From Pyrinomonadaceae bacterium (GTDB lineage: Bacteria > Acidobacteriota > Blastocatellia > Pyrinomonadales > Pyrinomonadaceae), in assembly GCA_022843305.1 (NCBI GenBank), contig JALHNX010000003.1, positions 4,272 through 68,271 on the forward strand: DNA of 64,000 nucleotides. Reading direction: 5' to 3'. The notes below the pieces were generated by a model. It ran no database searches. It was given only the letters and a program-made list of their open reading frames with translations, and was not told the origin of the DNA. Below, one piece after another: positions 4,375 through 33,056 of this stretch (positions are counted from its first letter, which is position 1; every line of letters starts with the position of its first letter). The position numbers were made by a program, and so were the translations under genes.

Positions 4375-4403
4375 AATTTTTAACGCAGAAATTATAAGAA
4401 AAA

Positions 4404-4483
4404 TTAGCCGCGGATTAACGCGGATTACGCGGATTAAATCAAATTATTTAAAATCCGCATAATCCGCGTTAATCCGCGGCTAA
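4404..4483. repeat. Long near-perfect inverted repeat (32-nt arms, 16-nt loop) built from three CGCGGATTA units per arm
   Basis: Left arm TTAGCCGCGGATTAACGCGGATTACGCGGATT (4404-4435). Right arm AATCCGCATAATCCGCGTTAATCCGCGGCTAA (4452-4483). There is one mismatch. It lies between two same-strand genes. Confidence 0.85.
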
Positions 4484-4487
4484 ATTC

Positions 4488-5480: not shown

Positions 5481-5502
5481 ATTCAATTTTTTTCACCGGC
5501 GG

Positions 5503-5802: not shown

Positions 5803-5884
5803 TTAACTCCTAAGTTTGCGGAAGGAGCGTACAAAGTAACGGCGCAATTTTACACCAACCTTAACATATATAAAGTTTAATTCA

Positions 5885-5912
5885 CCAAAAAAACGCAGTC
5901 ACGTTGCGTCTT
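5885..5912 (-). terminator. Putative intrinsic terminator after the caspase-FGE gene
   Basis: The minus strand reads GACGCAACGTGACTGCGTTTTTTTGG: a 5-6 bp stem followed by a T7 run, about 60 nt after the stop at 5971. Confidence 0.5.
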
Positions 5913-5970
5913 TTCCTTGAAAACCCGCCCTTGCGCATTAAAACTTATTCGATAAAATCTCTAAGGCAAA

Positions 5971-7605: not shown

Positions 7606-7628
7606 AATCGCCTCTATTTTACTGCGTT

Positions 7629-8918: not shown

Positions 8919-8934
8919 AGTTTGTAAATGAATT

Positions 8935-8977
8935 TATATTTCTCCACGAAAGCGTAATGCCTGCGTGGAGAAATATA
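8935..8977. repeat. 14-bp perfect inverted repeat between the M48 and caspase genes
   Basis: TATATTTCTCCACG (8935-8948) and CGTGGAGAAATATA (8964-8977). No T-run follows on the minus strand. Confidence 0.6.
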
Positions 8978-8998
8978 TCACCGAAAACGAAGTTTTTT

Positions 8999-10717
8999 TT
9001 ATTGTTTTTTGGTTGTCGTTTGTTTGGTTGTCGTTTGTTTAGTCGCCGGTTGGACACTTGCCGGAGTATTATTTACGACCGTCGCTGCGACATTTCTGAC
9101 ATTCGCTACCGGCGCAACGCTCCAGTTGATTTCTCCGGCTTCCTGCATATAGTCGTAAATAATGTTCATATTCGGCGGAAGCGCACCGCCGTTCATCTGC
9201 TGATACATGGCGACATATTCCTTTAAGTCGTTGACAATTTCCGTAATGTTGTTGGTCGAACGTCCGCTCATTTTCGTTAAAGCGTAGTAAAACCTTGCCT
9301 GCGGGTTGGCTCTGCGGTCGTCAAGTTCAATAGCTTTGGCAAACATCCGTAAGGCTTCTTCTCTTTCACCCGCTTTTCGCGCCGTCAGTTTCAAAACTTT
9401 GCCGTAATAAAAATAACTGAGCGCGTCGTCCGAACGAATCGCCAGTGATTGGTCGAGGTTTCGGGCGGCGAGTTTATACATATCGTAATAAAAAGCGGTG
9501 ATGCCGTTGTCGCGTTTGAGAACCGCCATGATATTTTCAAATTCGCCGTCGCCCGCCATTATTTCGCCGTTCTGAATTTTCATTTTAATCTCATCAGCCA
9601 TTTTTTCCTGATTTTTTTTCATTCGGTCCGTCGTGACGGTCGAATTGCGGTCGAGCGAAAGCGCTTTTCCGCGCAGGTTTGTTGCGCCGAAAGTAGTTTT
9701 GGCAATCGTTGAAGAATTGGCTCCGGCAATCCATCCGTTCACGGCTTTGCGACGTTCTTCGGTGCGTTTACGGTCGGCGAAACGGTCGAGTTCGAGACGC
9801 GGATCTTCATTGACGGCAGTTTTCAGCGTTTCGTAAAACGTCTGGGTTTCGCGGACATCGTAATTGCGTCCAAGCATATATTCCATCGCTATTTTGTCGG
9901 CATCGTCCTCTTGCGCGAGCGACCATTCAAACGCCTTCGGGTCAACCAATTTTGCGACCGATTTGCCGAGCGACGAACCGGCTCCGATTAAAAACAGGCT
10001 ATTGCCGCCCAGCAAGCCGGCAGTCATACCGCCCGCAATCGCGCCGAAAATGCTCGCTTTTCTTTCCTGGTCTTTGGTGGCATCCTCAACCCATTTTGCG
10101 ACCATTACATCCTGCCGCCAATGTTCCTTTTCGACGTGCGCGATTTCGTGTGAAAGTATGTAGGCAAGCTGCGCTTCATTATCCACCAGCGAGAGCAGTC
10201 CGGTCGAGATATAGACTGTGCCGGTCGAAAGCGAACGCGCGTCAGGCATCGGATTGAGCGTGATTTTAAAACCGTAAAGTTTATCCGAGTTTTGCGGAAC
10301 GAGCGATTGTCCGACACGGTTAACATAATCCTGTGCCAAAAGATTGTCGTAAAGTGTGTCGTTGTTCTTCGGAATTTTATCGCCCGAATTGGTCATTACC
10401 CAATCATCGTTGTCAAGCGTGTTGTATTTAAATGCAAGCTGCGCGTGATCGCGTTGAAGACGGCGAAATTCATAATCAACATCTTCCTTGAATTCCGCAT
10501 CCCTGTTGTATTTCTCCTGTGCTTTAGCGAGTGTTTCTCCATATTTACGGATTTGTTTATCAACTCGTTTATCGTCTTTCTCGTTTTGTTTGGTTTCCTT
10601 TTTTTCCTCTTTGCTTTTCTCGACTTTTTGCGCCAGCGCGAACATCGGCATCATTAACGACAAAAACACAACTCCCGCAAGGATACGAACTGTAACCTTT
10701 ACTTCTCTTGTTTTCAT
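8999..10717 (-). CDS. Secreted M48-family zinc metallopeptidase with a C-terminal TPR-like region
   Basis: AGGAG followed by ATG. Signal/anchor VFLSLMMPMFALAQ. HEIAHVEKEH (HExxH) plus the downstream EDDADKIAMEYM motif typical of M48. The C-terminus has helical repeats and a TKQTTTKQTTTKKQ tail. Confidence 0.85.
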   Translation of the reverse strand: MKTREVKVTVRILAGVVFLSLMMPMFALAQKVEKSKEEKKETKQNEKDDKRVDKQIRKYGETLAKAQEKYNRDAEFKEDVDYEFRRLQRDHAQLAFKYNTLDNDDWVMTNSGDKIPKNNDTLYDNLLAQDYVNRVGQSLVPQNSDKLYGFKITLNPMPDARSLSTGTVYISTGLLSLVDNEAQLAYILSHEIAHVEKEHWRQDVMVAKWVEDATKDQERKASIFGAIAGGMTAGLLGGNSLFLIGAGSSLGKSVAKLVDPKAFEWSLAQEDDADKIAMEYMLGRNYDVRETQTFYETLKTAVNEDPRLELDRFADRKRTEERRKAVNGWIAGANSSTIAKTTFGATNLRGKALSLDRNSTVTTDRMKKNQEKMADEIKMKIQNGEIMAGDGEFENIMAVLKRDNGITAFYYDMYKLAARNLDQSLAIRSDDALSYFYYGKVLKLTARKAGEREEALRMFAKAIELDDRRANPQARFYYALTKMSGRSTNNITEIVNDLKEYVAMYQQMNGGALPPNMNIIYDYMQEAGEINWSVAPVANVRNVAATVVNNTPASVQPATKQTTTKQTTTKKQ

Positions 10718-13835: not shown

Positions 13836-13932
13836 GGTTTTTGGTCTTTGGTTTTCGGTCTTTGATTTGTATTTCATTTAACCAAAATGGTTTATCAGAC
13901 AAAACACAAGCCGAAGACCAAAAACCGAAGAC
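13836..13932. repeat. Imperfect hairpin with arms made of degenerate heptamers (GGTCTTT/GGTTTTT)
   Basis: Left arm GGTTTTTGGTCTTTGGTTTTCGGTCTTTG (13836-13864). Right arm CAAGCCGAAGACCAAAAACCGAAGAC (13907-13932). Confidence 0.7.
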
Positions 13933-15201
13933 CTATTTAAAGAATTCCTCGCAGAGTTTTTGTGAGAGTTTTTCGCCCGCGACGCGATGACCGTCAATAT
14001 TCCAATGCCCATTGCCGATATTTTCGCCGAAACCGTGCAGATAAACTTTATTTTGTTCGGCAAAGAGTTGCAATTCGGGCGCGAGATTATAAACCGTAAA
14101 TTTTTCGCGCGTCCCGAGATTTTTGATGCGCGTGTCGGGATAAAAAATGTCGTTTGCGCCGATTTTTTCGAGAAAAGCGCGGCGCGGCGCGGCATCGGGA
14201 AAAACCTGTATGCCGTTGCTCAACGTGACGACCAGAAATTTCGCGTTTTTACTTTCAACTTCGTTGCGCATTTCGACGAGCAATCCTTCGGTTACGCGCC
14301 ACGCTTCCTGCCAAACCGCATCTGCCGGTTCGCGGTAAATCAAATTATCAATGCCGACATCTTCCGCCCGAACAACCGGGTTTGGTTGTTGCGGTGGTGC
14401 GGTTTCAGTCTTTTGCTGATTTGAAATTTGCTGTGTCGGAGTTTGTGCGCGTCTTTTTGCCAAATAATTTTTGAGCGAATACTGAGCTTGATGTCCGAGC
14501 TGGACAAACCGCAGATTATCTCTGAGCCACGTTCCCGATTTGCTCAGTTTTGATGTTCGCCAGCGAAACGCCGAAGTCGTGCGAAACGAATCGTCCAATT
14601 CGAGTTTGTCGCCGCGATAAACAAAATACGGGATTTCGTCGGTTTTCTTCAAAGCGCGTAAATTATCGGAAATATCGTTGTTCGTCGTTACCGCCAACAG
14701 CACAACGTCGGGCGAATATTCCCAAACCTGACGCTGCAAAGTTATCAATTCCTGCGCCGTGCCGTAACCCGAAACGCCGAAATTTATCACTTCGACCTGA
14801 CGACCGCCGAGCGCGGAACAGTTTTGAAGGCGATTTTCCGCGATTTTCCAAAAAGCGTTTTCAAGCGGAACCTGCAAGGCTTCCGCGTATGAATCGCCGA
14901 TCACCGCGATTCGCAAAGTGTTTGCCGGCTTTTGTTTATTATGTTCGACGTCGCGCAAACCGTCGCTGTTGATTCTGACGTAACTTTCGCCTTCTTTGCG
15001 ATACCAGCCTTCGATTTTCGGCGTTAAAACATAACCGCGATATTCGTCCGGCGAGTAAAACGTCGGGAACGAATAATTGATAATCCGCAAAGCGATTTCG
15101 GTAACGAATAAACCGATAACAAGGCTGATAAAAAGCAATGTAAATTTTACAAAAACCCGCTTTTTTCGGCTCCAATTTTGAGTTAGATTTTTTTGTTCCA
15201 T
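13933..15201 (-). CDS. Membrane-anchored SGNH/GDSL-family hydrolase
   Basis: ATG at 15201 (MEQKNLTQNW). TM helix FVKFTLLFISLVIGLFVTEIAL. Block I motif IAVIGDSYAEA. Confidence 0.8.
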   Translation of the reverse strand: MEQKNLTQNWSRKKRVFVKFTLLFISLVIGLFVTEIALRIINYSFPTFYSPDEYRGYVLTPKIEGWYRKEGESYVRINSDGLRDVEHNKQKPANTLRIAVIGDSYAEALQVPLENAFWKIAENRLQNCSALGGRQVEVINFGVSGYGTAQELITLQRQVWEYSPDVVLLAVTTNNDISDNLRALKKTDEIPYFVYRGDKLELDDSFRTTSAFRWRTSKLSKSGTWLRDNLRFVQLGHQAQYSLKNYLAKRRAQTPTQQISNQQKTETAPPQQPNPVVRAEDVGIDNLIYREPADAVWQEAWRVTEGLLVEMRNEVESKNAKFLVVTLSNGIQVFPDAAPRRAFLEKIGANDIFYPDTRIKNLGTREKFTVYNLAPELQLFAEQNKVYLHGFGENIGNGHWNIDGHRVAGEKLSQKLCEEFFK

Positions 15202-15332
15202 CCGGTGACGAAAAGATTCTAAAAAGTTTTTGAGAAATTGTCCAACTTCTCGAACCTTATCACATCTAAACATCTTTCAATAATTATATTGTCTAAACTT
15301 CGCCTGACAGGTATAATTATCCGTTTGGATTT

Positions 15333-21105: not shown

Positions 21106-22389
21106 ATGAAGTATTTGTCTATATTTGCGTTTTTACTCATTTTATCAACTAATCTGCTTTCCCAAACCGTTCAGCCGGACACCACACAAACACGCGCCCG
21201 CGTTGTCGGCGTAACGCCAACGCCGTCAAAAAACGTGGTTGTCACCAACAATTTGCCGCCGACACCCGCGCCGACTCCGAAATCCGTCGTTGTCGCATCG
21301 CCGACACCCGCGCCGGTTATTGTCAGCAGAACGCCGACTCCGGCAACAAACACGACCAATACGACGAGCCAAATTCTTTCGTTTGGTCAAATCAAAGCGA
21401 GGCTTGAAGAAGCAAAACGCGCAATGACGGCGCGACCGATCACGATTGCCGATACGGACGGCACATTTACGATGAGTTCGGTGCGGATCGCTTTTTACGA
21501 TTGGGACACGAAACAGCTCGATTACGTCGTCATGACAAAAGATGCGTTTCTGACCAAAAATGGCGAATTTTTCCTGACTTCGGCAAATAATAAATCGCTC
21601 AAGGTCAGAATCATCCGCCCGAACGGCGTCAACACGCCGGTCGTGATTTCCGATTACACGAACAAAAATCACCTGCCCTTGATGGTGCAGTATCCGGTCG
21701 AGCGCGGCGGAAAATATTACGAAACGGCTTATTATATGTCCACGCATCCCGGACTTGTCACGCCCGAAGTCGTCAACGCCGGAAAACTTTACGTCCGTAA
21801 CACGATCGACATCGCGCGCGAAAAACTTCGCCAGAAAGGTTTCACCATCGCGCCGCACATCGCCGATATGGGCGAAAAACTTTCGATTGTCGAACACGTT
21901 GACCATTATCGCTTCCGCACCGAATATCATCCGAATATCTACAACGACATTTTCACGCTTTTCGCGCTGAACGAAGGACAAACCTATCGTTATGCCGTCA
22001 GTTCGGCAGGCGCGGGCGGAATGGTGCAGATGATTCCCTCGACCTACGCGATGATGCGGCGGCTTTATCCCGGAGCGAATTTAATGCCCGATTTTGTCGA
22101 AGGAATGCGCGACCACGTCAACGCTTCGCAGGCAATGTTGCTTTATATTCAAATGACTTATAACGATCTGGTCGCCAGCCCGACCGTTGCCAACGCGCTG
22201 CAAACCGGCATTGCGACCGAAGCCGAACTGATGTCGGCAGGTTACAATTCAAATCCCGCAAGACTTCCCGGCTATATCAAACGCGGCGGCGCGAACTGGC
22301 GCAATCTGATTCCGCGCGAAACGCAGATTTACCTGCAGATCAATGCTTCGATTGATCGTTTCGCACCGTTTGCAAAACGCACAAAATAA
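21106..22389 (+). CDS. Secreted protein with a C-terminal lytic-transglycosylase (SLT)-like region
   Basis: ATG at 21106 gives the signal MKYLSIFAFLLILSTNLLSQ. A TP-rich linker follows. AGAGGMVQMIPSTYAMM is SLT-like. The track extension back to 20698 overlaps glmM and is rejected. Confidence 0.65.
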   Translation: MKYLSIFAFLLILSTNLLSQTVQPDTTQTRARVVGVTPTPSKNVVVTNNLPPTPAPTPKSVVVASPTPAPVIVSRTPTPATNTTNTTSQILSFGQIKARLEEAKRAMTARPITIADTDGTFTMSSVRIAFYDWDTKQLDYVVMTKDAFLTKNGEFFLTSANNKSLKVRIIRPNGVNTPVVISDYTNKNHLPLMVQYPVERGGKYYETAYYMSTHPGLVTPEVVNAGKLYVRNTIDIAREKLRQKGFTIAPHIADMGEKLSIVEHVDHYRFRTEYHPNIYNDIFTLFALNEGQTYRYAVSSAGAGGMVQMIPSTYAMMRRLYPGANLMPDFVEGMRDHVNASQAMLLYIQMTYNDLVASPTVANALQTGIATEAELMSAGYNSNPARLPGYIKRGGANWRNLIPRETQIYLQINASIDRFAPFAKRTK

Positions 22390-22409
22390 AATTCATTTTC
22401 GGTAAAATA

Positions 22410-22450
22410 AAAAAAAGCGAAGCAGAAAGTTTGCTTCGCTTTTTTGTTTT
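22410..22450. terminator. Bidirectional intrinsic terminator between convergent genes
   Basis: A-run, then AGCGAAGCA-GAAAGTT-TGCTTCGCT, then TTTTTGTTTT. Confidence 0.8.
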
Positions 22451-22464
22451 GATCGGGAAAAGTT

Positions 22465-23685
22465 TTAGCTCGCCGCTTTCGCGTCCGTCTTGTAAGCCGG
22501 AAGACTGACCCGCGCTTTCGGTTCTTTCTTCAAGCCCAAAGCCCAATCCGCTTGCATCAGCGTGTGTATGTCGCGCGTTCCTTCATAAATGACGGCGGCT
22601 TTGCAGTTTCGCAAATAACGCTCGACCGGATAATCGTTCGTGTAACCGTTTGCGCCGTGAATTTCAATCGCCATCGAAGCGGCTGTTTCACTGCGAACGG
22701 TCGCTTGCCATTTTGCCAAACTCGCGGCTTTTGCCGAAGATGCGCCGATATTTTTCAGATAACCGCATTTCAGCCAGAGCAGATGCGACATTTCATAATC
22801 GGCTTCCATATTAGCAATTTTTTGCTTGACGAGTTGGAAATTGGCGATTTTTTGCCCTTGCACTTCGCGTGTGTTTGCATATGAAACAGAAGCATCCCGC
22901 GAAGCGCGAATCACACCGGTTGCGCCTGCCGCGACCGTGTAGCGTCCGTTTTCAAGCGAAAACATCGCAATTTTGAAGCCTTCGCCTTCGTTCCCAAGCA
23001 TATTTTCGTTGGATACGCGCACGTCTTGAAGCGAAAAATAACCCGTATTTCCGGCTTTAATTCCCAATTTTCCGTGCAGCGTCCCGGAAGAAAAACCTTC
23101 CATCGTGCGCTCGACAATAAAACAACTGATGCCCGAATGGTCGCGCACTTTTTGTTTTTCCAAATCCGTCCAACAGAAAAACAGGAAATGATCGGCAACG
23201 TCGCCTAAAGAAATCCACATCTTTTCGCCGTTCAAAATCCATCCCGCGCCGTCGCGTTTGGCATACGAACGCATCCCGACGACATCGCTTCCCGCGTTCG
23301 GTTCGGTCAATCCGAACGTCGCCAATTTTTCGCCCTTCGCCTGCGGCACGAGATATTTTTGCTTTTGTTCTTCTGTTCCCCAAGTCAATAAAGACAAAGA
23401 GTTCAGCCCAACGTGAACGCTCATTGCGACGCGCAAAAACGTATCACACGCTTCGAGTTCTTCGCAGACAAGCCCAAGCGAAATATAATCAAACCCCGCG
23501 CCGCCGTATTCTTCGGGAATACAAACACCAAGAAGCCCAAGCTCCGCCATTTTGTCAAAAATGCTCCGCTCAAAATGCGCCTTCTCATCCCATTCCTTTA
23601 TAAACGGCGCAACTTCCCCATCGCAAAATTCCTTAACGGTTTTCTTTAACGCAATATGTTCTTCCGATAATTCAAAATCAATCAC
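22465..23685 (-). CDS. Acyl-CoA dehydrogenase family protein
   Basis: GTG start. FELSEEHIALKKTVKEF, GLTEPNAGSD, the C-terminal YEGTRDIHTLM-type motif, and typical length. Confidence 0.9.
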   Translation of the reverse strand: MIDFELSEEHIALKKTVKEFCDGEVAPFIKEWDEKAHFERSIFDKMAELGLLGVCIPEEYGGAGFDYISLGLVCEELEACDTFLRVAMSVHVGLNSLSLLTWGTEEQKQKYLVPQAKGEKLATFGLTEPNAGSDVVGMRSYAKRDGAGWILNGEKMWISLGDVADHFLFFCWTDLEKQKVRDHSGISCFIVERTMEGFSSGTLHGKLGIKAGNTGYFSLQDVRVSNENMLGNEGEGFKIAMFSLENGRYTVAAGATGVIRASRDASVSYANTREVQGQKIANFQLVKQKIANMEADYEMSHLLWLKCGYLKNIGASSAKAASLAKWQATVRSETAASMAIEIHGANGYTNDYPVERYLRNCKAAVIYEGTRDIHTLMQADWALGLKKEPKARVSLPAYKTDAKAAS

Positions 23686-23767
23686 AGTTTTATAAATTTC
23701 CTTTTAATTTTAAGAAAGTAAATACCGAAATTATTCTATCATTTTGCCGAAAACCTTAGTCAAACCG

Positions 23768-23810
23768 CAAAACAAAAAAGGTGCAGAAAGTAATTCGCTT
23801 TCCACCTTTG
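23768..23810 (-). terminator. Putative intrinsic terminator after the M23-vWA gene
   Basis: The minus strand reads AAGGTG-(19 nt)-CACCTT, then TTTTTGTTTTG. Confidence 0.55.
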
Positions 23811-23837
23811 AGGTTTATGAAACCGTGAATTGATCAG

Positions 23838-25814
23838 TTATAAATTTTTCGTTTTATAATCATCGAGCCGTTCAATCAATTCTTCGAGATGTCCGATTGG
23901 AATGGTCAGCAAACTGAGAGCGTCGCGGTCGAATGAAGGTGAATTGACGCGGCGGTTTAGAAAATCAAGAGAATCAGCCAAATCTGTTGTGTTTCGTTCG
24001 ATTCTTGGCGAGCGGATTTCTAAAATTGTCATCAAATTTCGATAGAATATTCCTTTTTCCGCAACAAATCCGGCAAACTCTGCCGCTAATTCCGCATTTT
24101 TTAAGCTGGTCAAACGTTTGTAATATTCTTTCAAATACGCCAAATCGCTTCGTAAAACATCAATGTAATAGATAAATTGACTTCGATAATCTACTTCTAA
24201 TGTTGTAACTTTTCGCCCGACCTCACTTGAATCGGGCGCGTTTGCCAACAATTTTAAATATTGCAGATAATTTTCCGTCGCGCATTTCGGGCGTTCCAAC
24301 GCTTCGCAAACCATCGCCAGATTGTAGTATCCAATCGGGTCGGACGGATTGTTTTTGACGTAAATCGTCCAAATCTGCAAGGCGTTTCCAAAATCCCGAT
24401 TGACGATTGCCCGTGTGCCGCTTTCGTTGTTTGAAACTTTCGGCTGATAAACGCGAATTACTTTTTGAAAAGCGCGTCTGAGTTGTTCCGAATCCCGCGC
24501 CGGAAAATATTTTCCGCCCGAACTCGATGCCAAATATTGCAAATCGCGCTCTTCTTGCGAACCGGGTTTAATGTCAAACCCGATGCACAAAAACTTGATT
24601 TTTTGATAGACGATGTTTTGACTTTGGCTATACACGCCGCGAGGTCGAATCTTGTCATTACAAGTGTTCATTCCGTCCGTTAAAACAACAATTCGACCTT
24701 CGCCAAGTTGCGGACGAGCCGCGAGATAATCGGTCATCCGGTCAACCGATAAATTTATCGCCGTAAAAAGCGGCGTTGCGCCCGCCGGCGGCGTAATTCC
24801 GCGCAGAAATATATTTTCGGCTTGGCTCAAATTATTAGTAAAAGGCAATAATTGTTTGACATCCCGCGGAGTGCATTCGCCGCCGAAAGTCCAAATCGAA
24901 ACAGTCGAATTATCCTGTTTCCGCCGCCGATTTTCCTGCATCTCGCGCACTGCCTCCAATCCCGCATTTTTCGCCTGCAAAATCTTTCCGTTTTCTTCCA
25001 TACTTCCCGAAACGTCAAGCAAAAACATCGTCGGAAGTTCGGCAGCCGTTACGGGCGGCACGATTGTTCCGCCTTTAATGCGGACATTTGAGAGAAAACT
25101 TATCGGATCAATAACCGGGTTTTTTAAAACATTTTTCAGTCTTCCGTCCGGTTCATAACCATTGAGTTCGGAGTTTGAACAAACTGACCAAATCTCAAAA
25201 TGAAGATGCGGAACGTAAGTATATTTTTTGTTTTGCTTATCGTAAAGTTCGGCAATTTTTCCGCCTGCGTCAATATTATCGCCTGTTTTAACGAGAATTT
25301 TACTTTCATCTAAATGCAGATAGTAAGAAAAAATTTCTTCGGTTTCAAATTCTTCGTAGCTTCCGGCTTTGCCGTTGTATCTGAAAGCGATAAATTTACT
25401 TCCGCGTGGTGCAAGGTGTTTGATAATCACTAATCCGCCGCGAGTCGGAAGAGGATTCGGATTCGATTTTGTTGAAAAGATTACAATCCCGTTTCCAATC
25501 GAATAAATCGGCTGATTTTGGCTTGCTGAACTGCTTCCGCCAAGCAAATAATCAACTCCCGTATGTTGCCAAAATCCGCCCGGCAGCCCCGGAATGTCTT
25601 TATTTGTTACACGGTTTCCAAAATCATTTGTGATTTGCCAAGAATTTCCGCCCGTATCCAGTACTGGCATTTTAAAAAAATCTGCCCTTTTTGAAGGTTC
25701 AAGTCCGCATTGGACTCCGCTTAGTTTTGTTTGTGCCTGCGTAATAAAAACAAAAAAACACAGTAAAAACGGGGCAAGACGGAAAATCCTAAAGTTTTGC
25801 TGTAAAATTCTCAT
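23838..25814 (-). CDS. Secreted M23 (LytM-type) peptidase fused to a vWA domain and a C-terminal helical-repeat region
   Basis: M23 motifs HTGVDY (HxxxD) and PHLHFEI (HxH). vWA MIDAS motif LLDVSGSMEENG. The C-terminus is TPR-like (ALQIWTIYVKNNPSDPIGYYNLAMVCEAL). Confidence 0.85.
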   Translation of the reverse strand: MRILQQNFRIFRLAPFLLCFFVFITQAQTKLSGVQCGLEPSKRADFFKMPVLDTGGNSWQITNDFGNRVTNKDIPGLPGGFWQHTGVDYLLGGSSSASQNQPIYSIGNGIVIFSTKSNPNPLPTRGGLVIIKHLAPRGSKFIAFRYNGKAGSYEEFETEEIFSYYLHLDESKILVKTGDNIDAGGKIAELYDKQNKKYTYVPHLHFEIWSVCSNSELNGYEPDGRLKNVLKNPVIDPISFLSNVRIKGGTIVPPVTAAELPTMFLLDVSGSMEENGKILQAKNAGLEAVREMQENRRRKQDNSTVSIWTFGGECTPRDVKQLLPFTNNLSQAENIFLRGITPPAGATPLFTAINLSVDRMTDYLAARPQLGEGRIVVLTDGMNTCNDKIRPRGVYSQSQNIVYQKIKFLCIGFDIKPGSQEERDLQYLASSSGGKYFPARDSEQLRRAFQKVIRVYQPKVSNNESGTRAIVNRDFGNALQIWTIYVKNNPSDPIGYYNLAMVCEALERPKCATENYLQYLKLLANAPDSSEVGRKVTTLEVDYRSQFIYYIDVLRSDLAYLKEYYKRLTSLKNAELAAEFAGFVAEKGIFYRNLMTILEIRSPRIERNTTDLADSLDFLNRRVNSPSFDRDALSLLTIPIGHLEELIERLDDYKTKNL

Positions 25815-25826
25815 TATTCAATAGGC

Positions 25827-26120
25827 TTAATAACAACTGATAAATTCACGGAAAACCCAACCGAGAATCACATAATTTCTGCCGCGATAAACACCGATTC
25901 GCACCCATTCGCGCCCGCGGTTATCCGACGAATATTTTTCGATATAAACCACCGTTCCATTGCGGATTTTTCCGACAATTCGACCATTCGGCGAAGCCCG
26001 AATATTTAACGGCGTTCCCGTCGGATCAGTTACTTTACATCTCTGTGCGCTTGCTTCCTGAACACCTACAAAAGCAAATACTCCAACCAAAAATAATATG
26101 CAAAATATTGAACTTTTCAT
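25827..26120 (-). CDS. Small secreted SH3b-domain protein
   Basis: AGGAG followed by ATG, with a signal peptide. CKVTDPTGTPLNIRASPNGRIVGKIRNGTVVYI is a typical bacterial SH3 pattern. Confidence 0.7.
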   Translation of the reverse strand: MKSSIFCILFLVGVFAFVGVQEASAQRCKVTDPTGTPLNIRASPNGRIVGKIRNGTVVYIEKYSSDNRGREWVRIGVYRGRNYVILGWVFREFISCY

Positions 26121-26135
26121 TTTCTTCTCCTATTT

Positions 26136-26858
26136 TTATTTGATCTCCGAAAACTGAACATCTAAAATTCCGGTTTCGGGACAATTTTGAAAATCGTAAT
26201 GCCACCATTCCGCCGCATAAACCTTAAAACCGTCCGACTCCATCGCTTTTCGCAAAATCTCGCGGTTTTTCTTTTGCGCTTCGGTTGCTCTTGCGTAATC
26301 AATCGCGGCTTTGGCTGTAAAATCATCGTATTCGGTCGGCAGATCCAAATTTTCGCCTGTTTTTAAGTCAAAAAGACTCAAATCAACCGCGCAACCGCGA
26401 TTGTGGCGCGAGCCGTTTTTCGGGTTGGCAACGAATTTTTTCTTGCTTGCGGGCGTAACTTCCCAGAAAAGTTTGGTTGCCGAAAGCGGACGATAGCCGT
26501 CAAAAATTACCAAGCCAAGATTGTCTTTTTTCAATTTTTGGTGAATCCTGACAACCGCATCTGCCGCCGGACGCTGTAAAAAAGCCCGCGCTTCTTTGTA
26601 AACTGCTTTACCGACAAAATTGTTTGCCGTCGCATAGCGAATGTCGAGTTTTAGCGTGTCGTCCAACTTTATCAACTCGACCAAGCCGTCTTTGGAAACT
26701 TCTTTTTTCGCCGTTGCCGACGGAGTCGGGCTTGGCGTTAAATTTGTTTCGGCAATTTTAGGCTTCGGCGTTTCAATTTCAGTTTTCGCCGTTGTCGCCG
26801 CCGGATTTTGACAAGCTAAGCTGACCGCAAAAATTAAAAATATAAATACGATTTTCAT
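26136..26858 (-). CDS. Exported D-alanyl-D-alanine dipeptidase (M15D, VanX/DdpX-like)
   Basis: FDGYRP, SRHNRGCAVDLSL (SxHxxGxAxD) and AEWWHYD. Signal or lipobox-like N-terminus IFAVSLAC. Confidence 0.85.
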   Translation of the reverse strand: MKIVFIFLIFAVSLACQNPAATTAKTEIETPKPKIAETNLTPSPTPSATAKKEVSKDGLVELIKLDDTLKLDIRYATANNFVGKAVYKEARAFLQRPAADAVVRIHQKLKKDNLGLVIFDGYRPLSATKLFWEVTPASKKKFVANPKNGSRHNRGCAVDLSLFDLKTGENLDLPTEYDDFTAKAAIDYARATEAQKKNREILRKAMESDGFKVYAAEWWHYDFQNCPETGILDVQFSEIK

Positions 26859-26878
26859 ATTTCCGATAATATTCCGAG

Positions 26879-27442
26879 CTAATCGCTCGAAGTCGCGGCA
26901 TCAACTCCAAAACAAAATCCGTCTTGTGTGCCTTTTCCGCTCAAACAATATTCGCCCGGCGACAGAGTGTTTGCCGGAACGACTTTGAACGAAGATTCGC
27001 CGTATTTGGCGACATTAAATTGAATAGCGTATTGATTGACGGTAGTTTTTGAGCTGATTCCAATTGAACCGACTTTGGCAACCGTTAGTTGACGATAGCC
27101 TTTTTTGGAATCAAACCGAAAAAATTCGATAACGCTCATCGGGTCAATCGCTTGCGAAGCTACGCGCACAACAAACGCTAATTTTTGGTCGGCTTTGAAT
27201 CTGACGTTTGATTTTTCACCTTTAATCCTCAAAAGACTTTCGCCGCCGCCATAACCCAAGGCTTTAATTTTAACTTTTGATTCCGGCGTTTGCCGTTCAA
27301 GCGCAACTAAGTTTCCGTTTTCTTCCAAATTAAAGTAAACGCCGATGTATTCGGGTTCGGTTACGGTTTTCTTTTCTTGCGCCAAGACCGTTTGGCAAAG
27401 CAAAATTACCAAAACAAAAAATGATAGTTTCATAATTTTCAT
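26879..27442 (-). CDS. Secreted hypothetical protein
   Basis: Signal peptide MKLSFFVLVILLCQTVLAQ. It is packed 13-20 nt from both neighbours. No family recognised. Confidence 0.6.
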   Translation of the reverse strand: MKIMKLSFFVLVILLCQTVLAQEKKTVTEPEYIGVYFNLEENGNLVALERQTPESKVKIKALGYGGGESLLRIKGEKSNVRFKADQKLAFVVRVASQAIDPMSVIEFFRFDSKKGYRQLTVAKVGSIGISSKTTVNQYAIQFNVAKYGESSFKVVPANTLSPGEYCLSGKGTQDGFCFGVDAATSSD

Positions 27443-27455
27443 ATTTTTTTCTCCA

Positions 27456-29288
27456 TTACGAACATTGAATTTTAAGAGTTTGCCGCACAGATTGCGGAAC
27501 GGATTTTAGTTCATCGCATTGATAATCGCCGCCTTCGTCCATTCCGACTGATGTCCAAGTATTGCCGTTTTGTTTGAGAAGCCAAGTTCCGCCTTGTCCG
27601 GTAGTCTGCATTTTACTATTCATCGTATTCACACCGATTTCGGCGTAATCGTCGGCAAAACTCTTTATTTGCGACTTTGTTTTTTTAATAATTCGCCCCG
27701 TTTTTATCGCCGCCACATAATTAAAACCTTCCAGCGCAATCCAAACATATACATCTTGCGAACTCGCGCCCTGTTTGGTTTCTTTGACGACAAAAGCAAT
27801 GAGCGATGAGATTTTCTTTTGAAGCGCGGCGGCTTCGGCTCTTTTGATTTGCGCCGGTGTTTGCGGTTTGATTTTTGTGGTTTTCGGCGTAGTTTTGGCA
27901 ACATTCGGTTTTGGCTTCGGTTGAATCCAGCCGAAATATACGCCCACGCCTTCGACAAATTTTTCACGCCCGACGGTATGTTCGCTGAAATCGGCGTTTG
28001 AATAATTTAAAATCATTTCGCGCCGCGTGTCTTTCAGACGTTCCAACAACGAATTATTGTCAACATAAAGCACAACGCCGGTTGAAACTTCGCGGTAAAT
28101 CCCCATCATCCGCCGCCAGACGTTTGCGCCTTCGCGGACATCGTAACCGGCATCGTAAGCGTAATAAAGTCCAACGCGGTCGGCTTGTTCTTCCATATCT
28201 TTGGAAAATTTGCCGGACATCAGTTTATAAGACAGTTGCGCCATTAAAAGTCCCGTATTTTGTCCCAAAACGGACGCACCGATACCAATGAGTGCCGCCC
28301 AACGCGCTTGATCTTGTTGGGCTTCAAAACGTCGGCGGGCGTGTTCATTGGTAACGTGCGCGATTTCGTGTCCGAGAACGAAGGCTAGTTCCGCTTCGCT
28401 TTGCAGACGTTTTAAAAGTCCCGTATGAATAAAAACCGAACCGTCCGAAAATGCTACGGCATTCGGCACATCGTCTTCGAGAACATAAAAACGGAATAAA
28501 ACCCTATTCGGATCTTCTTCGGGCAACATTTTCAAATATTTCGGCACAATCCGCATTCCGATTTTTGTAACGTAAGTGTTAAGTTCCAAATCATCAACTA
28601 CTTTGAAAGTGCGTCCGTTGATTATCACGCCCGCGCCGGTTGTTCCGGGCGGCGGCAAGGTCAAACCTTTTTTGACGGTTTCCAATAATTTTGTTTCAAG
28701 CGGCGTAAAAAGATTCGGGCGAACTTCGCCGGACGTAACTCTAACTACCCGATTTGTCTGCCGAATGCCTTTCAAATCGAGAAGCGAACCGAGCGGAATA
28801 TCTTTGAATGTGTTAAAGGTTTTGCCTTTCCATTCTTTAACTCCGGTCAAAATCGCATTCGGCGCAAGCTCGACTACTCTGCCGTTGACTAACGCCCGCG
28901 GAACTTCAACGCGGTCGAGATAACCGTCAATATTCTCTTTCTGTTCTTCAGGATTCGTTTTTACATTGATTTGAACAGCTTTTAATTGGGTCGTTTCGAT
29001 TTTATCGAGTTCGATTTCAACTTCTATTCCGGCACGAATGTAATCCGCCGTAATCGCTTTGCCTTTGTGATTTTTGAGTTTGGTCTGCCCGCTAATCACA
29101 ATTTCCGCAAAATCCCGATTCGGCAAATTTTTCTCGTCCGTCTGAATAATAAGCCGATTAAATGGCGCGGCAAACTCCAAAACAAAACCGTCCTCAATTT
29201 TTGAAGGCAACTTTTTCTGCGCCGAAACTGATAAATTGACGGCTGCAAACATAAATAGCAGCAATGAAGTTAAATGTTTTTTATTCAT
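27456..29288 (-). CDS. Secreted M48-family zinc metallopeptidase (second paralog)
   Basis: Signal LLLFMFAAVNLSVSAQ. LGHEIAHVTNEH (HExxH) and EEQADRVGLYYAYDAG. N- and C-terminal extra domains of unknown type. Confidence 0.85.
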   Translation of the reverse strand: MNKKHLTSLLLFMFAAVNLSVSAQKKLPSKIEDGFVLEFAAPFNRLIIQTDEKNLPNRDFAEIVISGQTKLKNHKGKAITADYIRAGIEVEIELDKIETTQLKAVQINVKTNPEEQKENIDGYLDRVEVPRALVNGRVVELAPNAILTGVKEWKGKTFNTFKDIPLGSLLDLKGIRQTNRVVRVTSGEVRPNLFTPLETKLLETVKKGLTLPPPGTTGAGVIINGRTFKVVDDLELNTYVTKIGMRIVPKYLKMLPEEDPNRVLFRFYVLEDDVPNAVAFSDGSVFIHTGLLKRLQSEAELAFVLGHEIAHVTNEHARRRFEAQQDQARWAALIGIGASVLGQNTGLLMAQLSYKLMSGKFSKDMEEQADRVGLYYAYDAGYDVREGANVWRRMMGIYREVSTGVVLYVDNNSLLERLKDTRREMILNYSNADFSEHTVGREKFVEGVGVYFGWIQPKPKPNVAKTTPKTTKIKPQTPAQIKRAEAAALQKKISSLIAFVVKETKQGASSQDVYVWIALEGFNYVAAIKTGRIIKKTKSQIKSFADDYAEIGVNTMNSKMQTTGQGGTWLLKQNGNTWTSVGMDEGGDYQCDELKSVPQSVRQTLKIQCS

Positions 29289-29304
29289 ACAGTCCGCAAA
29301 GTAG

Positions 29305-29622
29305 CTATGGTTCCGGAACAGGGTCTAACGTTCCTTTCCTGACACATTTTTTACACGAGTTGATACGGCGATAAGTCAGCACTAACCCGTATCTGATACC
29401 GTGTTTTTGGACGGCTTCAATCGAATATTCGGAGCAAGTCGGGTGATAGCGACATTCAATTTTGCCTTCCAGCATCGGTCGCCCGATATACTGATAAATA
29501 CGCACACCACCAACATAGAACCAACCCGTGATTTGCTTTTCGGGATTACGATAAGTGTCTGCAATTGCCAAAGTTATCAGCAAAAAAAGTACAATTAAAT
29601 ATGTTTCGGGTTTTTTAAGCAT
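29305..29622 (-). CDS. yidD: YidD-family membrane protein insertion efficiency factor-like protein
   Basis: CRYHPTCSEYSIEAVQKHGIRYGLVLTYRRINSC matches the YidD signature. ATG at 29622 overlaps the upstream stop by 8 nt. Confidence 0.8.
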   Translation of the reverse strand: MLKKPETYLIVLFLLITLAIADTYRNPEKQITGWFYVGGVRIYQYIGRPMLEGKIECRYHPTCSEYSIEAVQKHGIRYGLVLTYRRINSCKKCVRKGTLDPVPEP

Positions 29623-30034
29623 TTCCACACGTTGGACATTTAACAATCGATTGAAGCCTTTTATTGTTGCAATGCGGACAATTTATCAAATCACCTTGCG
29701 GGCGGGAATAATAATAAATTGCAAAACCTATCAGCCCGGTAAAGAAAACAAGAAGCATCCACATTACAGAATTATCCAGTCCCCGGGCTTTTGCGTCTTT
29801 AGCAACCCAAACTAAAAGCGCGATGTTAAGCCCGATGACTGCGACAATTGCCACAATCGGCAAAATTATCATCGCCCCTGCCCCTGCGCCGCAAGTTCCG
29901 CAAGCCGCGCAAACCTCGGCATCATTCGGTTGATTCGTTCTGCTTTGAGCAAGCACTGAAACTATTTGCAGCAAAATCATCATTAAAGAAAACGCTGTTT
30001 TTTTTATTTTTTTCACCTTTATTCTTCTCTCCAT
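29615..30034 (-). CDS. Membrane protein with a PLD-nuclease-N-like two-TM module and a C-terminal zinc ribbon
   Basis: Signal/anchor, CAACGTCG, two TM helices flanking WVAKDAKARG, and a C-terminal CPHC...CPTC. Confidence 0.65.
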   Translation of the reverse strand: MERRIKVKKIKKTAFSLMMILLQIVSVLAQSRTNQPNDAEVCAACGTCGAGAGAMIILPIVAIVAVIGLNIALLVWVAKDAKARGLDNSVMWMLLVFFTGLIGFAIYYYSRPQGDLINCPHCNNKRLQSIVKCPTCGNA

Positions 30035-30142
30035 TTTTCAGCTAATTTATAAATACTTTGATTATTATTGTGAGGATGTGAGGTAACAAATGCCTGTGAA
30101 ATAATCCAAGTGCGATTATTTTTGCTATCTGCCGGTTTGTCA

Positions 30143-30415
30143 TTACTTTTGAACCGATTTTCTCAAATCTTGCCAATAACTTCGCTCTCCGATCAAATAA
30201 CTCCAGCCCTCGTTTTTTGAAACAGCCCCGTCCAAAGCCCATTCAAAACTCGAAGACATCATATTTTTCACGGCAGTTTTGTAGTTATTCAAAACATTTT
30301 GCTTTAACTTTGCGAAAAATGTCTGAAAACTTTGGTCTTGAGCATTGGCTAGCAGACTGCCGGCAATGTTCAGCAGAATTACCGTTAATATTGAAATGAT
30401 TTTTATTCGGTTCAT
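30143..30415 (-). CDS. Small secreted hypothetical protein
   Basis: ATG at 30415 gives the signal MNRIKIISILTVILLNIAGSLLANAQ. The longer track start was not used. Confidence 0.55.
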   Translation of the reverse strand: MNRIKIISILTVILLNIAGSLLANAQDQSFQTFFAKLKQNVLNNYKTAVKNMMSSSFEWALDGAVSKNEGWSYLIGERSYWQDLRKSVQK

Positions 30416-30492
30416 TTTTCTCCTTTTGAAGAGTTCGACAAAGTTCTGGAAACAGTTATCGAACTCTTCAAATTTGTGCCGGACAAACCGGC

Positions 30493-30879
30493 TTACCATT
30501 CCTCGTAATGCCAATCACCATTTCCCTTTTGACTCGGTTCGCCGCCCTGATAAATTCTTTCGATTCTTGCGTCAGAAGTCGTGGTTACGGTCAACGGAAT
30601 AGAATCGTTTTTCTTATGGTCAAGCCGAATAACAAAACCTTTTTTTGGAGTTCTGCCGCCGCCCGAATGAAATGTTCCGCTTTTTTGCCATCCGCCCCAT
30701 TTGATATTGACTTTGACATTCTTCGGAACAATTCCGGATGTTTGCCCAAATCGCACAATCACATAAATCTTTCCCTTCTCCGCCGGCGGTGTCCAAGTTT
30801 GCGTATCTGCCCGCACGGTTGTCGGAATCGCCAGCAAACAAAACAATATCCCGAATATCGCAATTAGTTTTCTTTTCAT
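30493..30879 (-). CDS. Small secreted hypothetical protein
   Basis: AGGAG followed by ATG. Signal MKRKLIAIFGILFCLLAIPTTVRA. Confidence 0.6.
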   Translation of the reverse strand: MKRKLIAIFGILFCLLAIPTTVRADTQTWTPPAEKGKIYVIVRFGQTSGIVPKNVKVNIKWGGWQKSGTFHSGGGRTPKKGFVIRLDHKKNDSIPLTVTTTSDARIERIYQGGEPSQKGNGDWHYEEW

Positions 30880-30920
30880 TTTTTCTCCTGATTTTGTTAC
30901 TTTCGCTAATCTTCTTCACT

Positions 30921-31097
30921 TCAACTCGATTTTTCGTATTGTAAATACGATTGTTTCCCAGAACCTTTACAAACCGTGCAGTTGCCCGAACCGCGACATT
31001 TTGAGCAGTTAGTTTTGCCGAGTAATCCGTAAGTTCCGCCTTTTCCGCCGCATTGCGCACAATTTCCCGTGCCTTTGCACCCTTTACATTCAGCCAT
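30921..31097 (-). CDS. 58-aa protein consisting of four DnaJ-type CxxCxGxG zinc-finger repeats (absent from the ORF track)
   Basis: My own translation is MAECKGCKGTGNCAQCGGKGGTYGLLGKTNCSKCRGSGNCTVCKGSGKQSYLQYEKSS*. GAGAGGA lies 5-11 nt upstream of ATG at 31097. The stop is 41 nt before the next gene. Confidence 0.65.
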   Translation of the reverse strand: MAECKGCKGTGNCAQCGGKGGTYGLLGKTNCSKCRGSGNCTVCKGSGKQSYLQYEKSS

Positions 31098-31540
31098 CTT
31101 AATCCTCTCTTTTCGTTTGTTTTCGATAAATGTTGTTTTATCCTGTTCATGCTCTCAATATCCACTCAATTTTTTTATTTTCGCTCAAAATTCTTTGAGA
31201 ACAGTTTTTTAACCGCTTTCGAGCGAAAAATCCTTGATTTTGGTTTGCGCCGGTGTTATGATTTGCGCTGTAAAATATAAAAACCGAGTTCCTTTGGGAT
31301 AAAACCTTTTTCCGTAATTCTGCCCGACGGATTTATTTTGTTTGTATTCGGACAGCGGTGAATTTTTGAATGTTTTATAAACCGCTTTAACTACAAAAAT
31401 TGAATTTTGTTTTGCACTATCTACCGTATCTCCAAATGACATTTTGACAATGAATTTATCTTGAAATTTTCGTGAAATAATCGTGAACCGGCTTTTCATT
31501 TTTACGATTTGCGCTGATTTGCGAAATTCAGGAAAGCATT

Positions 31541-32785
31541 ATGAACAAACTCTCAAAAATTTATACATTCGACGATTTTCAGTTTGATACCGACCGTCTC
31601 GCCCTTTATCACCGCACTAATCTGGTCAAAAACAGCGATAAAAAAACGATGCAGGTGTTGGCGGTTTTATTGCTTAATCCGAACAGATTAACGACGCACG
31701 AAGAGATTATCGAAAAGGTTTGGCAGGATAATCCGCTCGGTGTAACTTCCGGGCATATCGGGCAATACATCAGCCGGCTGCGAAAGATTTTTGCCGAACT
31801 CGCGCCTGAAAAACAATTTATCGAAACGGTCAAAGGACGCGGTTATTCATTTAAGGGCAATATATTTTTAGATGACGCGCAAATTGAAGAGAGTGTTGAA
31901 ACCGCGTTGCCGACTGACGCGGCAAATATTCCCGAATCCGTCCAAATTAGCGGAGAAAAATCCGCTTTGCGTTTCAACCTTCGTCAAGCGACAATCGCTT
32001 TTTCGCTTTTGATCTTGGCTTTACTGACGATTTTCGCGGCTTGGACGCGGTTTGCCAAAAATGATGAAGAAGAAATACGGCGCGTGGTTAAAGAGTCGCA
32101 ATTATACGAGTCGTTGGTGTTATACAAAAATCCGGCAATGTTCGATGAAACGCAGCTGGATAAATATTGGATGGCGGAACTCGACCATACTCTGAACGCC
32201 GACCGCCGCCGCATCCGCGAAGCCGTCAAAAAACTCGACAACGAAGGCAGGCGATACGGCGATGAAACACGATGCGAACAGTTCGAGTTTCAATCTGTCG
32301 AAATCAATCAAAACCGCGATTTTGCCGTTGTCAAAACTCTGGAAAAATGGTTTATTGCCGTCTATTTCAACGATGGAACTCTGCAAAGAAATAAATATGT
32401 CGGTCCTTATTTTGTCAGTTATCTCGTCCGCAAATCGAACGGACGCTGGTTGATTGAAAAATCGAATACGGCGCGGGTTAATCGTCCGATACCGCGGCTG
32501 TCCGGCATCGAAACTCTTTCCGAAATCAAGCCGGAACAGCAGTTTTTCGTTAAACTGAACGGACAGGATTTTGAAGCGGAAACCGTTCACATCGAGATTT
32601 TCGGCGAAGGCTGCCCGGAAAGCAACCCGTGCCGAATTTCAAATATAACCTTGCGGGAAAATTCAAAAATCTCGGAAACATTTTTAGAGAATGTTCCGCT
32701 CACGTTGTCGTCCGGCATTTTCAGAATTACCGTTCGCAACGGCGATTCGCGGGGATCGAATTCGGTTGATCTGGAAGTTCCGTAA
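31541..32785 (+). CDS. CadC/ToxR-like membrane-bound transcriptional regulator (N-terminal OmpR-type winged helix)
   Basis: FDDFQFDTDRLALY...MQVLAVLLLNPNRLTTHEEIIEKVW...YISRLRKIF...ETVKGRGYSF, then the TM helix IAFSLLILALLTIFAAW and an extracytoplasmic domain. Confidence 0.8.
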   Translation: MNKLSKIYTFDDFQFDTDRLALYHRTNLVKNSDKKTMQVLAVLLLNPNRLTTHEEIIEKVWQDNPLGVTSGHIGQYISRLRKIFAELAPEKQFIETVKGRGYSFKGNIFLDDAQIEESVETALPTDAANIPESVQISGEKSALRFNLRQATIAFSLLILALLTIFAAWTRFAKNDEEEIRRVVKESQLYESLVLYKNPAMFDETQLDKYWMAELDHTLNADRRRIREAVKKLDNEGRRYGDETRCEQFEFQSVEINQNRDFAVVKTLEKWFIAVYFNDGTLQRNKYVGPYFVSYLVRKSNGRWLIEKSNTARVNRPIPRLSGIETLSEIKPEQQFFVKLNGQDFEAETVHIEIFGEGCPESNPCRISNITLRENSKISETFLENVPLTLSSGIFRITVRNGDSRGSNSVDLEVP

Positions 32786-32807
32786 ATAGATTTGTGATTT
32801 TTGCTGT

Positions 32808-33056
32808 ATGACAAATGAATTTATCATTTACGAATTTGCCGGTTTGCGCTTTTCTGCATTCGATTCGATTTTGGAAAATACGGCGACGGGAAAAAGAATC
32901 AAACTGTCGCAAACGCATTGTCATTTTCTGCTTGCGGTCGTGCGAAAATCTCCCGAAATTGTCGCGTATAACGATTTGCGTCAAAAAGTTTGGGTGCATT
33001 ACAGAGAAATGTCAGAATCGCTCAAACAGCGGATTTTTCTTCCGCTTTTCTGTTAA
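32808..33056 (+). pseudogene. Truncated winged-helix (CadC-like) fragment
   Basis: 82-aa ORF with [55 protein letters not shown]. It lacks the wing (xGxGY), TM and sensor parts, and lies 22 nt after the full-length paralog. Confidence 0.4.

Follow-up and report, generated by a model that had tools for sequence, protein, structure and literature searches.

Locus architecture

Seven co-directional genes, g1 to g7, occupy positions 23838-30034 on the minus strand of the window, the 64,000-nucleotide (nt) stretch of Pyrinomonadaceae DNA analyzed here. They encode, in order, a zinc-ribbon membrane protein, a YidD paralog, an M48 metalloprotease, a secreted beta-sandwich protein, an M15 dipeptidase-like enzyme, a small SH3b protein and a large exported protein in which an M23 peptidase precedes a vWA domain and a helical tail (Table 1). 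By comparison with related loci, the block resolves into three independent cassettes joined at a variable chromosomal site of a soil acidobacterium (Blastocatellia): the M48 protease with the vWA protein, whose N-terminal domain is exchanged between lineages; the M15 and SH3b pair; and the zinc-ribbon protein with the YidD paralog.

Gene calls were taken from a list of open reading frames (ORFs) with their translations. The tight packing reported in the initial annotation holds, with all seven minus-strand ORFs located where it had placed them and separated, from g1 to g7, by -8, 16, 13, 20, 15 and 12 nt when the ATG at 29622 is taken as the YidD start (the g2 ORF itself opens at a TTG at 29646, which would give 113 amino acids (aa)); g2 thus overlaps g1 by 8 nt. 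Hidden Markov models (HMMs) likewise support the YidD, M48, M15 (VanX/DdpX-like), SH3b, M23 and vWA identities. Every product is predicted, from its sequence, to be exported or membrane-bound: Sec signal peptides are visible on g3, g4, g6 and g7, a lipobox on g5, and transmembrane (TM) segments on g1 and g2. The terminator expected after the last gene was recovered by a terminator scan and RNA folding as a stem-loop 33 nt past the g7 stop codon, with UUUUUUGUUUU trailing the stem. The seven genes are presumably co-transcribed.

Table 1 Features of the seven-gene block and its upstream flank, in window coordinates
Feature	Position	Strand	Basis
g1: PLDc_N/Zn-ribbon membrane protein, 139 aa	29615-30034	-	ORF list, Pfam
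g2: YidD paralog (YidD2), 105 aa from ATG 29622	29305-29622	-	Pfam, NCBIfam
g3: exported M48 zinc metalloprotease, 610 aa	27456-29288	-	Pfam
g4: secreted 187-aa protein, Ig-like beta-sandwich	26879-27442	-	AlphaFold2 model
g5: VanX/DdpX-type M15 dipeptidase-like enzyme, 240 aa	26136-26858	-	Pfam, VanX alignment
g6: secreted single-domain SH3b protein, 97 aa	25827-26120	-	Pfam
g7: exported M23-vWA-TPR-like protein, 658 aa	23838-25814	-	Pfam, AlphaFold2
Intrinsic-terminator-like hairpin and U-run	23805-23783	-	Terminator scan, RNA fold
u1: small secreted protein, signal peptide from M34 of ORF	30143-30415	-	ORF list
u2: small secreted protein, 128 aa	30493-30879	-	ORF list
u3: 58 aa, four CxxCxGxG zinc-finger repeats, opens the co-directional run	30921-31097	-	ORF list
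ToxR/CadC-like one-component regulator, divergent	31541-32785	+	Trans_reg_C 59.8 bits

A protease and a chassis with exchangeable heads

The last gene of the block, g7, encodes a multidomain protein that we divide into an N-terminal head and a C-terminal chassis. Behind the signal peptide lies the M23 head (residues ~87-209; Pfam 44.9 bits against a cut-off of 28.7), followed by a disordered linker (209-256), the vWA domain (262-455; 40.5 bits) and a TPR-like segment with a helical bundle (464-657). Alignment of the head to LytM (PDB 2b0p) shows that QHTGVD (HxxxD), YLH (the catalytic His, LytM H260) and PHLHF (HxH) are all kept. The vWA domain carries its DxSxS motif together with the downstream Thr and Asp; the metal ion-dependent adhesion site motif is DVSGS at 267-271, and T347 is invariant across homologs. 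In the AlphaFold2 (AF2) model the predicted local distance difference test score (pLDDT) is 77 overall and above 85 in the tail, where 464-657 form helical hairpins and a bundle, while the N-terminal region and linker are of low confidence and could be a pro-segment. The M23-vWA-TPR fusion proposed in the initial annotation therefore stands in its first two parts, both called by Pfam; Pfam makes no TPR call in g7 itself, and the third part is represented by weak calls at the equivalent position in homologs and by the modeled hairpins. A Foldseek search with the model returned generic vWA folds and an M23 phage lysin, and nothing for the helical tail.

The protease g3 (Peptidase_M48, 87.7 bits) comprises a signal peptide, a beta-rich N-terminal domain of ~230 aa, a BepA-like core and a variable C-terminal domain, with the catalytic motifs HEIAH and EEQAD intact. 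In the PDB it matches 3c37 and BepA best by sequence. BepA is also its best NCBIfam match, at 104.5 bits where the equivalog level requires 570; the alignment is confined to the catalytic core (residues 229-405), and a full-length match with the C-terminal TPR domain of M48_BAM_BepA is absent. Between g3 and the chassis gene lies g4, for which no Pfam or NCBIfam family was matched. Its AF2 model (pLDDT 82) is an Ig-like beta-sandwich with a conserved C-terminal Cys pair; Foldseek found no significant structural neighbor for it, only weak Ig-like matches. Fifteen g4 homologs were found, and a homolog lies between the M48 and chassis genes in L007, L011 and L023 only. A 186-aa gene upstream of a chassis-free M23 protein in L039 is unrelated to g4.

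The M48-vWA loci compared here number 12: the window, L007 (=L022), L008 (=L026), L009, L010, L011, L012, L014, L023, L024, L025 and L028. All 12 have an M48 gene immediately upstream of the vWA-TPR gene and in the same orientation, with at most a g4 homolog intervening. The heads, meanwhile, fall into at least four classes. M23 heads are found in the window, L007, L010 and L011, and an alpha/beta-hydrolase (lipase) head of DUF676/PGAP1 type in L009, L024, L028 and most of the ~800-aa database homologs. L012, L023 and L025 share an uncharacterized head of ~390 aa with no PDB or NCBIfam match; L014 carries a further uncharacterized head, and the protein P0009 a PD40 propeller.

Head type and chassis relatedness do not agree. 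For instance, the proteins of the window, L011 and L023 share 79-84% identity in their tails, yet their heads are M23, M23 and the uncharacterized class; those of L010, L025 and L028 share 74-78% tail identity, yet have an M23, an uncharacterized-class and a lipase head. These pairwise identities show that the chassis follows the host lineage, whereas its heads have been replaced time and again. In the window protein, GC content at third codon positions is lower in the head (0.345) than in the tail (0.453). Chassis-free proteins (P0024-P0027) carry this M23 head as well, and one of them sits at the same chromosomal site without an M48 gene (L040). Our literature search on M48, vWA and M23 neighborhoods returned nothing relevant; the M48-chassis cassette with swappable heads is undescribed.

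Two further observations concern M48 genes. In the long-read metagenome-assembled genome (MAG) L025, the M48 gene (3735-5129) is broken across several frames, reflecting either a pseudogene or sequencing error. The window itself contains a second M48 gene (8999-10717, 572 aa), which, as the initial annotation had pointed out, heads a caspase cluster at 2551-10717 on the minus strand. That cluster also holds caspase, caspase-FGE-sulfatase, DUF4384 and Ser/Thr kinase genes, and shares with g1-g7 a layout in which M48 comes first and effector-like proteins follow.

An inserted M15 and SH3b pair

The M15 and SH3b genes sit exactly between g4 and g7, whose counterparts abut in L011. The product of g5 matches Pfam Peptidase_M15 at 114.9 bits, and alignment to VanX (PDB 1R44) shows equivalents of R71, H116, D123, E181 and H184 to be kept (dgyRP, sH, vD, EwwH). 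Together with the M23 alignment, this supplies both the HMM matches and the catalytic residues for the VanX and M23 motifs on which the initial annotation relied. At equivalog level g5 falls short, with scores of 148.6 for DdpX (NF007557, cut-off 176) and 97 for VanX (NF033115, cut-off 320), and it departs from VanX and DdpX in location as well, since they are cytoplasmic and g5 begins with a signal of the lipoprotein type (…VSLAC), after which comes a Pro/Thr-rich linker of ~45 aa. Its partner g6 is matched by Pfam SH3_3 at 28.3 bits.

An exported M15 enzyme is not in itself distinctive here. A protein of this family of ~480 aa, also exported, is present in single copy in nearly every genome of the genus, so that the exported VanX/DdpX-type enzyme of the initial annotation is correct in identity and export and ordinary for the lineage; exported VanX-like enzymes seem to be core equipment of it. 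A second, short M15 copy is found only in G000 (the genome containing the window), G010 and G001. In G010 the M15 gene (74% identical to g5) is again followed by an SH3b gene (75% identical to g6), and the pair adjoins not M48-vWA but genes for a Zn-ribbon membrane protein and for a large protein that, as judged by eye, resembles FHA at its N-terminus.

Elsewhere in G000, contig C55 carries at 13837-15255 on the plus strand a 472-aa exported M15 protein of VanX-like type with a signal peptide and a C-terminal extension of ~230 aa, 60% identical to g5. In G001, locus L038 (contig C16) contains at 4459-7410 a tandem array of four paralogous membrane proteins with N-terminal zinc ribbons (213-273 aa), directly upstream of genes encoding an M15 protein, a large protein whose N-terminus is FHA-like, and a Zn-ribbon-kinase-FGE-sulfatase protein.

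A YidD paralog with its own partner

The first two genes form a cassette of a different kind. The g1 protein consists of an N-terminal signal or TM segment, a Cys-containing loop, a two-TM PLDc_N hairpin (WVAKDAKARG) and a C-terminal CPHC...CPTC zinc ribbon; its PLDc_N score of 22.3 bits is just below the cut-off of 23.3. Its family, of 938 clusters at 50% identity, is recognizable by WVxxDAKxR, RPxG and a C-terminal CxxC…CPxC ribbon. Among g1 homologs the WVxxDAKxRG motif is invariant, as are W76, D80, K82, R84, R111, P112 and the four ribbon Cys residues.

The g2 protein is a YidD family member by both PF01809 (68 bits, cut-off 27) and TIGR00278 (54.6 bits, cut-off 40), and retains the CR(F/Y)xPTCS motif of canonical YidD. 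It is a paralog, as the initial annotation proposed: G000 (322 contigs, 94.8% complete) has two PF01809 matches, of which the stronger (106 bits, 82 aa) lies on contig C129 between an rnpA-like gene and yidC, the arrangement of canonical yidD. Compared with that protein, g2 carries an additional N-terminal TM helix and two inserted residues and lacks one of the Cys residues; its gene is coupled in translation with the PLDc_N/Zn-ribbon gene, not placed near rnpA or yidC. It belongs to a subfamily, which we call YidD2, of about 50 clusters at 90% identity, with an N-terminal extension of about 30 residues that contains the TM helix, the two-residue insertion and three invariant Cys residues.

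A second YidD match is present in 11 of 150 other genomes of the class. Seven genomes have a g2 homolog (42-63% identity over nearly the full length) with a g1 homolog immediately upstream, usually abutting or overlapping. The adjacency recurs in metagenome contigs L028 and L030, and is absent from L029 (Terriglobia), so that g1 and YidD2 are neighbors at 10 of 11 loci. At 9 of the 11, YidD2 occurs without M48, M15 or vWA genes (the pair stands alone in L015-L021 and L030), which tells against the initial idea of a YidD dedicated to the hydrolases; only in the window and L028 does the pair precede M48-vWA. No conserved neighbors of the pair were found beyond within-genus synteny, and our search of the literature on YidD paralogs and PLDc_N pairing found no description of it; the pair is undescribed. 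A YidD paralog here has a fixed partner outside the yidC context, and this offers a handle on YidD, whose function is still poorly defined. Any role of the pair within the present block is one that we infer.

A variable chromosomal site

The seven-gene unit was found in no other genome or contig examined. M15 and SH3 genes are absent from all 11 related M48-vWA loci, and g1 and g2 accompany the cassette in L028 only; conserved synteny of the seven genes is not observed. The unit is a recent assembly of cassettes, which shows that genes can be closely packed without forming a conserved operon.

The chassis gene is itself patchily distributed. Among 40 relatives, with a same-genus sample of 17 genomes, clear g7 matches were confined to two genomes of the genus, G011 (68%) and G015 (55%), alongside a marginal match to the M23 domain only in G002 (E 2.4e-6). 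No g7 tail was detected at E ≤ 1e-12 in 100 other sampled genomes of the phylum. A search of 5.8 billion proteins yielded 29 g7 relatives, labeled Acidobacteriota or Pyrinomonadaceae where named, and a scan of genome collections with a 16-sequence alignment placed chassis loci in Blastocatellia-type MAGs only.

Several of these loci occupy the same chromosomal position. The flanking acyl-CoA dehydrogenase is shared by L007, L009, L011, L023, L024 and L025, and the flanking ToxR-like regulator by L007, L009, L011, L023 and L028; L040 carries the dehydrogenase and moeA. Across loci the dehydrogenase is 87-96% identical, while the genes of the island are 55-83% identical and differ in content. 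L009, L011 and L023 carry CHAP genes; WG-repeat/SH3 proteins are encoded in L007, L024 and L040, and these three loci, like L028, also encode Zn-ribbon membrane proteins. The recurrent accessory genes encode exported envelope enzymes or binders: M23, CHAP, M15, SH3b and lipase. The island is slightly AT-richer than the whole genome (0.40-0.45 versus 0.471), and no inverted or direct repeats of the kind that would point to a mobile element turned up on its flanks in a search for repeats.

A small recurring unit was also seen in L007, L024, L028 and L040, where a Zn-ribbon membrane protein (262-274 aa) is paired with a protein of 144-146 aa, downstream of the chassis gene or in its place, and is often followed by WG-repeat/SH3 proteins.

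Relation to known systems

Several characterized systems offer partial precedents. BepA (YfgC) of Escherichia coli is a periplasmic M48 protease with a TPR domain; g3 is likewise a predicted Sec-exported M48 enzyme with HExxH and a downstream Glu, and in both cases a TPR scaffold goes with the protease. Here, however, the TPR-like element resides on a separate protein, with a vWA domain and a hydrolase head, and g3 has unrelated N- and C-terminal domains and belongs to an accessory, patchily distributed gene. LytM, lysostaphin and LasA illustrate a second precedent, that of latent secreted M23 endopeptidases, with SH3b targeting domains. The Zn ligands and catalytic His of g7 align with those of LytM, the protein is predicted to be secreted, and an SH3b protein and a possible pro-segment are at hand; the SH3b unit is a separate 97-aa protein in this case, the C-terminus of g7 is instead vWA-TPR-helical, and proteolytic activation would be assumed by analogy. 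As for VanX and DdpX (M15D), g5 shares their family and catalytic residues, whereas its lipoprotein signal and long linker suggest that it acts outside the cytoplasm, and no van or ddp transporter genes lie near it.

The Bat (Bacteroides aerotolerance) operon, which runs MoxR-DUF58-BatA/B (vWA)-BatC (TPR)-BatD-BatE (TPR and SH3), resembles the block in gathering envelope vWA, TPR and SH3 elements into one operon, and a weak NCBIfam match to BatA was seen. It differs in that the vWA protein here is soluble, with a hydrolase head and an M48 partner, and Pfam and NCBIfam searches found no MoxR, DUF58, BatA, BatB or BatD among the ten genes of the run (u3 to g7).

Wall- and lipid-attacking modules exchanged on a constant carrier, a hypervariable locus, and caspase, kinase and FGE-sulfatase genes close by are also reminiscent of polymorphic effectors of the Tae/Tle type, delivered by type VI secretion, and of the vWA-based conflict systems that Kaur et al. 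(2020) described. Unlike both, the variable module is N-terminal in this case, and no immunity gene, secretion apparatus or NTPase is present. The conflict systems in that paper (PMC7159879) rely on an NTPase, and neither M48 nor M23 is mentioned in it. A PADLOC search for known anti-phage defense gave no match for g1-g7 at E ≤ 0.01.

Proposed function and alternatives

We tentatively read the block as a lineage-specific mosaic operon at a hypervariable site between the ToxR-like regulator and the acyl-CoA dehydrogenase, where it would supply an accessory, Sec-exported toolkit for lysing envelopes, with the M48 protease controlling the hydrolase. Our rough probability for this reading is 0.45, a little short of even odds. 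The core would be a two-gene cassette of a periplasmic, BepA-like M48 protease and an exported vWA-TPR-bundle chassis with an exchangeable head, here a predicted active M23 peptidoglycan endopeptidase. The M15 and SH3b cassette would have been inserted between the beta-sandwich and chassis genes, and the PLDc_N/Zn-ribbon and YidD2 cassette just upstream of the protease, all products leaving by Sec or inserting in the inner membrane. Because the M48 partner is invariant, the protease may well control the chassis, most simply by cutting its pro-region or linker and so releasing or activating a latent head; cleavage is the simplest model because the analogous M23 enzymes are latent and the AF2 model shows a disordered pro-region and linker. 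By this analogy the chassis protein would be the M48 substrate, its vWA-TPR part docking a partner or target. The M23 head would then cut peptide cross-links, the M15 enzyme remove or split D-Ala-D-Ala, and SH3b bind the wall. It is the recurrent envelope-hydrolase theme, combined with patchy distribution, fast divergence and head exchange, that points to an accessory and diversifying lytic toolkit, and other cells or debris are more likely to be its target than routine metabolism of the cell's own wall.

A number of points weigh against this reading. The locus encodes no secretion apparatus beyond Sec, leaving export past the outer membrane unexplained. No small neighboring gene co-varies with head type, and no toxin-immunity pairing is evident; a protein of 102-107 aa, considered as an immunity candidate, follows a lipase head in L009 and a head of the uncharacterized class in L023. 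The PD40 head is a propeller and not an enzyme. These three points also speak against a toxin aimed at other bacteria. The M48 protease could equally degrade the chassis or act on another substrate. The YidD2 pair, which adjoins M48-vWA in two lineages (the window and L028), may be an optional functional link. Promoter-like and terminator-like matches within g1-g7 are as frequent as expected by chance, and say nothing for or against sub-transcripts.

The initial annotation instead saw one operon for editing peptidoglycan in the cell's own wall, in which a dedicated YidD-like factor assists protein insertion or export. The M23, M15 and SH3b proteins do act on or bind peptidoglycan, the active sites are intact, the genes are tightly packed, and L028 repeats the order of YidD2 pair and M48-vWA, so that peptidoglycan editing of some kind is possible. 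As an account of the whole block it is nonetheless quite improbable, given that the unit recurs in no other genome examined, that the head in most relatives is a lipase or an uncharacterized domain, that YidD2 mostly occurs without these genes, that most congeners searched lack the chassis gene and that a core exported M15 enzyme is already encoded elsewhere in the genome; the patchy vWA gene, the exchange of heads and the variable content argue for an accessory lytic module. At the other extreme, the cassettes may simply have gathered at a recombination hotspot, with unrelated functions and co-transcribed at most by accident. Each does occur alone elsewhere, and close relatives carry very different cargo at the site, including the M23 protein without chassis or M48 in L040. 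Mere adjacency is an unlikely explanation all the same: gaps of 12-20 nt have no room for promoters, the M15 and SH3 insertion sits precisely inside the core cassette, and the envelope-hydrolase theme (M23, CHAP, M15, SH3b, lipase) recurs across loci.

A serious rival, if one that we also hold to be unlikely, is that the lysis is regulated and directed at the producer, in a conflict response resembling abortive infection or programmed death. The chassis would be a latent periplasmic suicide effector, M48 the trigger, and Zn-ribbon membrane proteins, including g1, would relay a cytoplasmic signal. With export by Sec only, the cell's own periplasm is the default location, and effector-type exchange of heads without any immunity gene is what such a system might look like. 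Zn-ribbon membrane proteins are found at 7 of the 12 loci, CHAT/caspase, kinase-FGE-sulfatase and FHA-ABC genes are close by in L010, L012 and L014, and the second M48 gene of the window heads a caspase cluster. Yet no NTPase or known sensor is present, neither PADLOC nor the Kaur et al. (2020) systems provide a counterpart, it is uncertain on which side of the membrane the g1 zinc ribbon lies, and CHAP, M15 and SH3b accessories would fit the digestion of wall material equally well.

Returning to the toolkit reading, a more ambitious version can be formulated, which we regard as speculative and rather unlikely. In essence, M48 and the [head]-vWA-TPR protein would constitute an undescribed, Sec-dependent and protease-gated envelope effector, a constant carrier whose swappable latent lytic head is released by M48 on a signal to kill neighbors or to lyse the producer, and the PLDc_N/Zn-ribbon and TM-YidD pair would be another membrane module, likewise undescribed, available for recruitment to this effector. 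Should the M48-chassis pair indeed work as a protease-controlled carrier of exchangeable wall- and lipid-degrading heads, it would offer diderm soil bacteria a simple route to diversifying lytic enzymes without a dedicated secretion machine, and would be a source of modular peptidoglycan hydrolases.

Flanking genes and minor features

The co-directional run begins upstream of g1 with three small genes, u3, u2 and u1. The last of these lies 108 nt upstream of g1, and the gap holds promoter-like hexamers; u1 relatives are present in L007, L011, L023 and L024. u2 is kept in G011 (84% identity) and L028 (52%), and a u3 copy (68% identical) occupies the equivalent position in metagenome contig L028.

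An Rfam scan of 22000-33000 identified no RNA family. The 20-nt string TTTTGrTTTGCGCCGGTGTT is found within the M48 gene (27842-27861), and a 95% identical copy lies in the intergenic region before the regulator gene (31238-31257), probably by chance. The divergent ToxR-like regulator is built from a winged helix (Trans_reg_C), a single TM segment and a domain in the periplasm, and at least eight more paralogs of this membrane regulator are spread over several contigs of G000.

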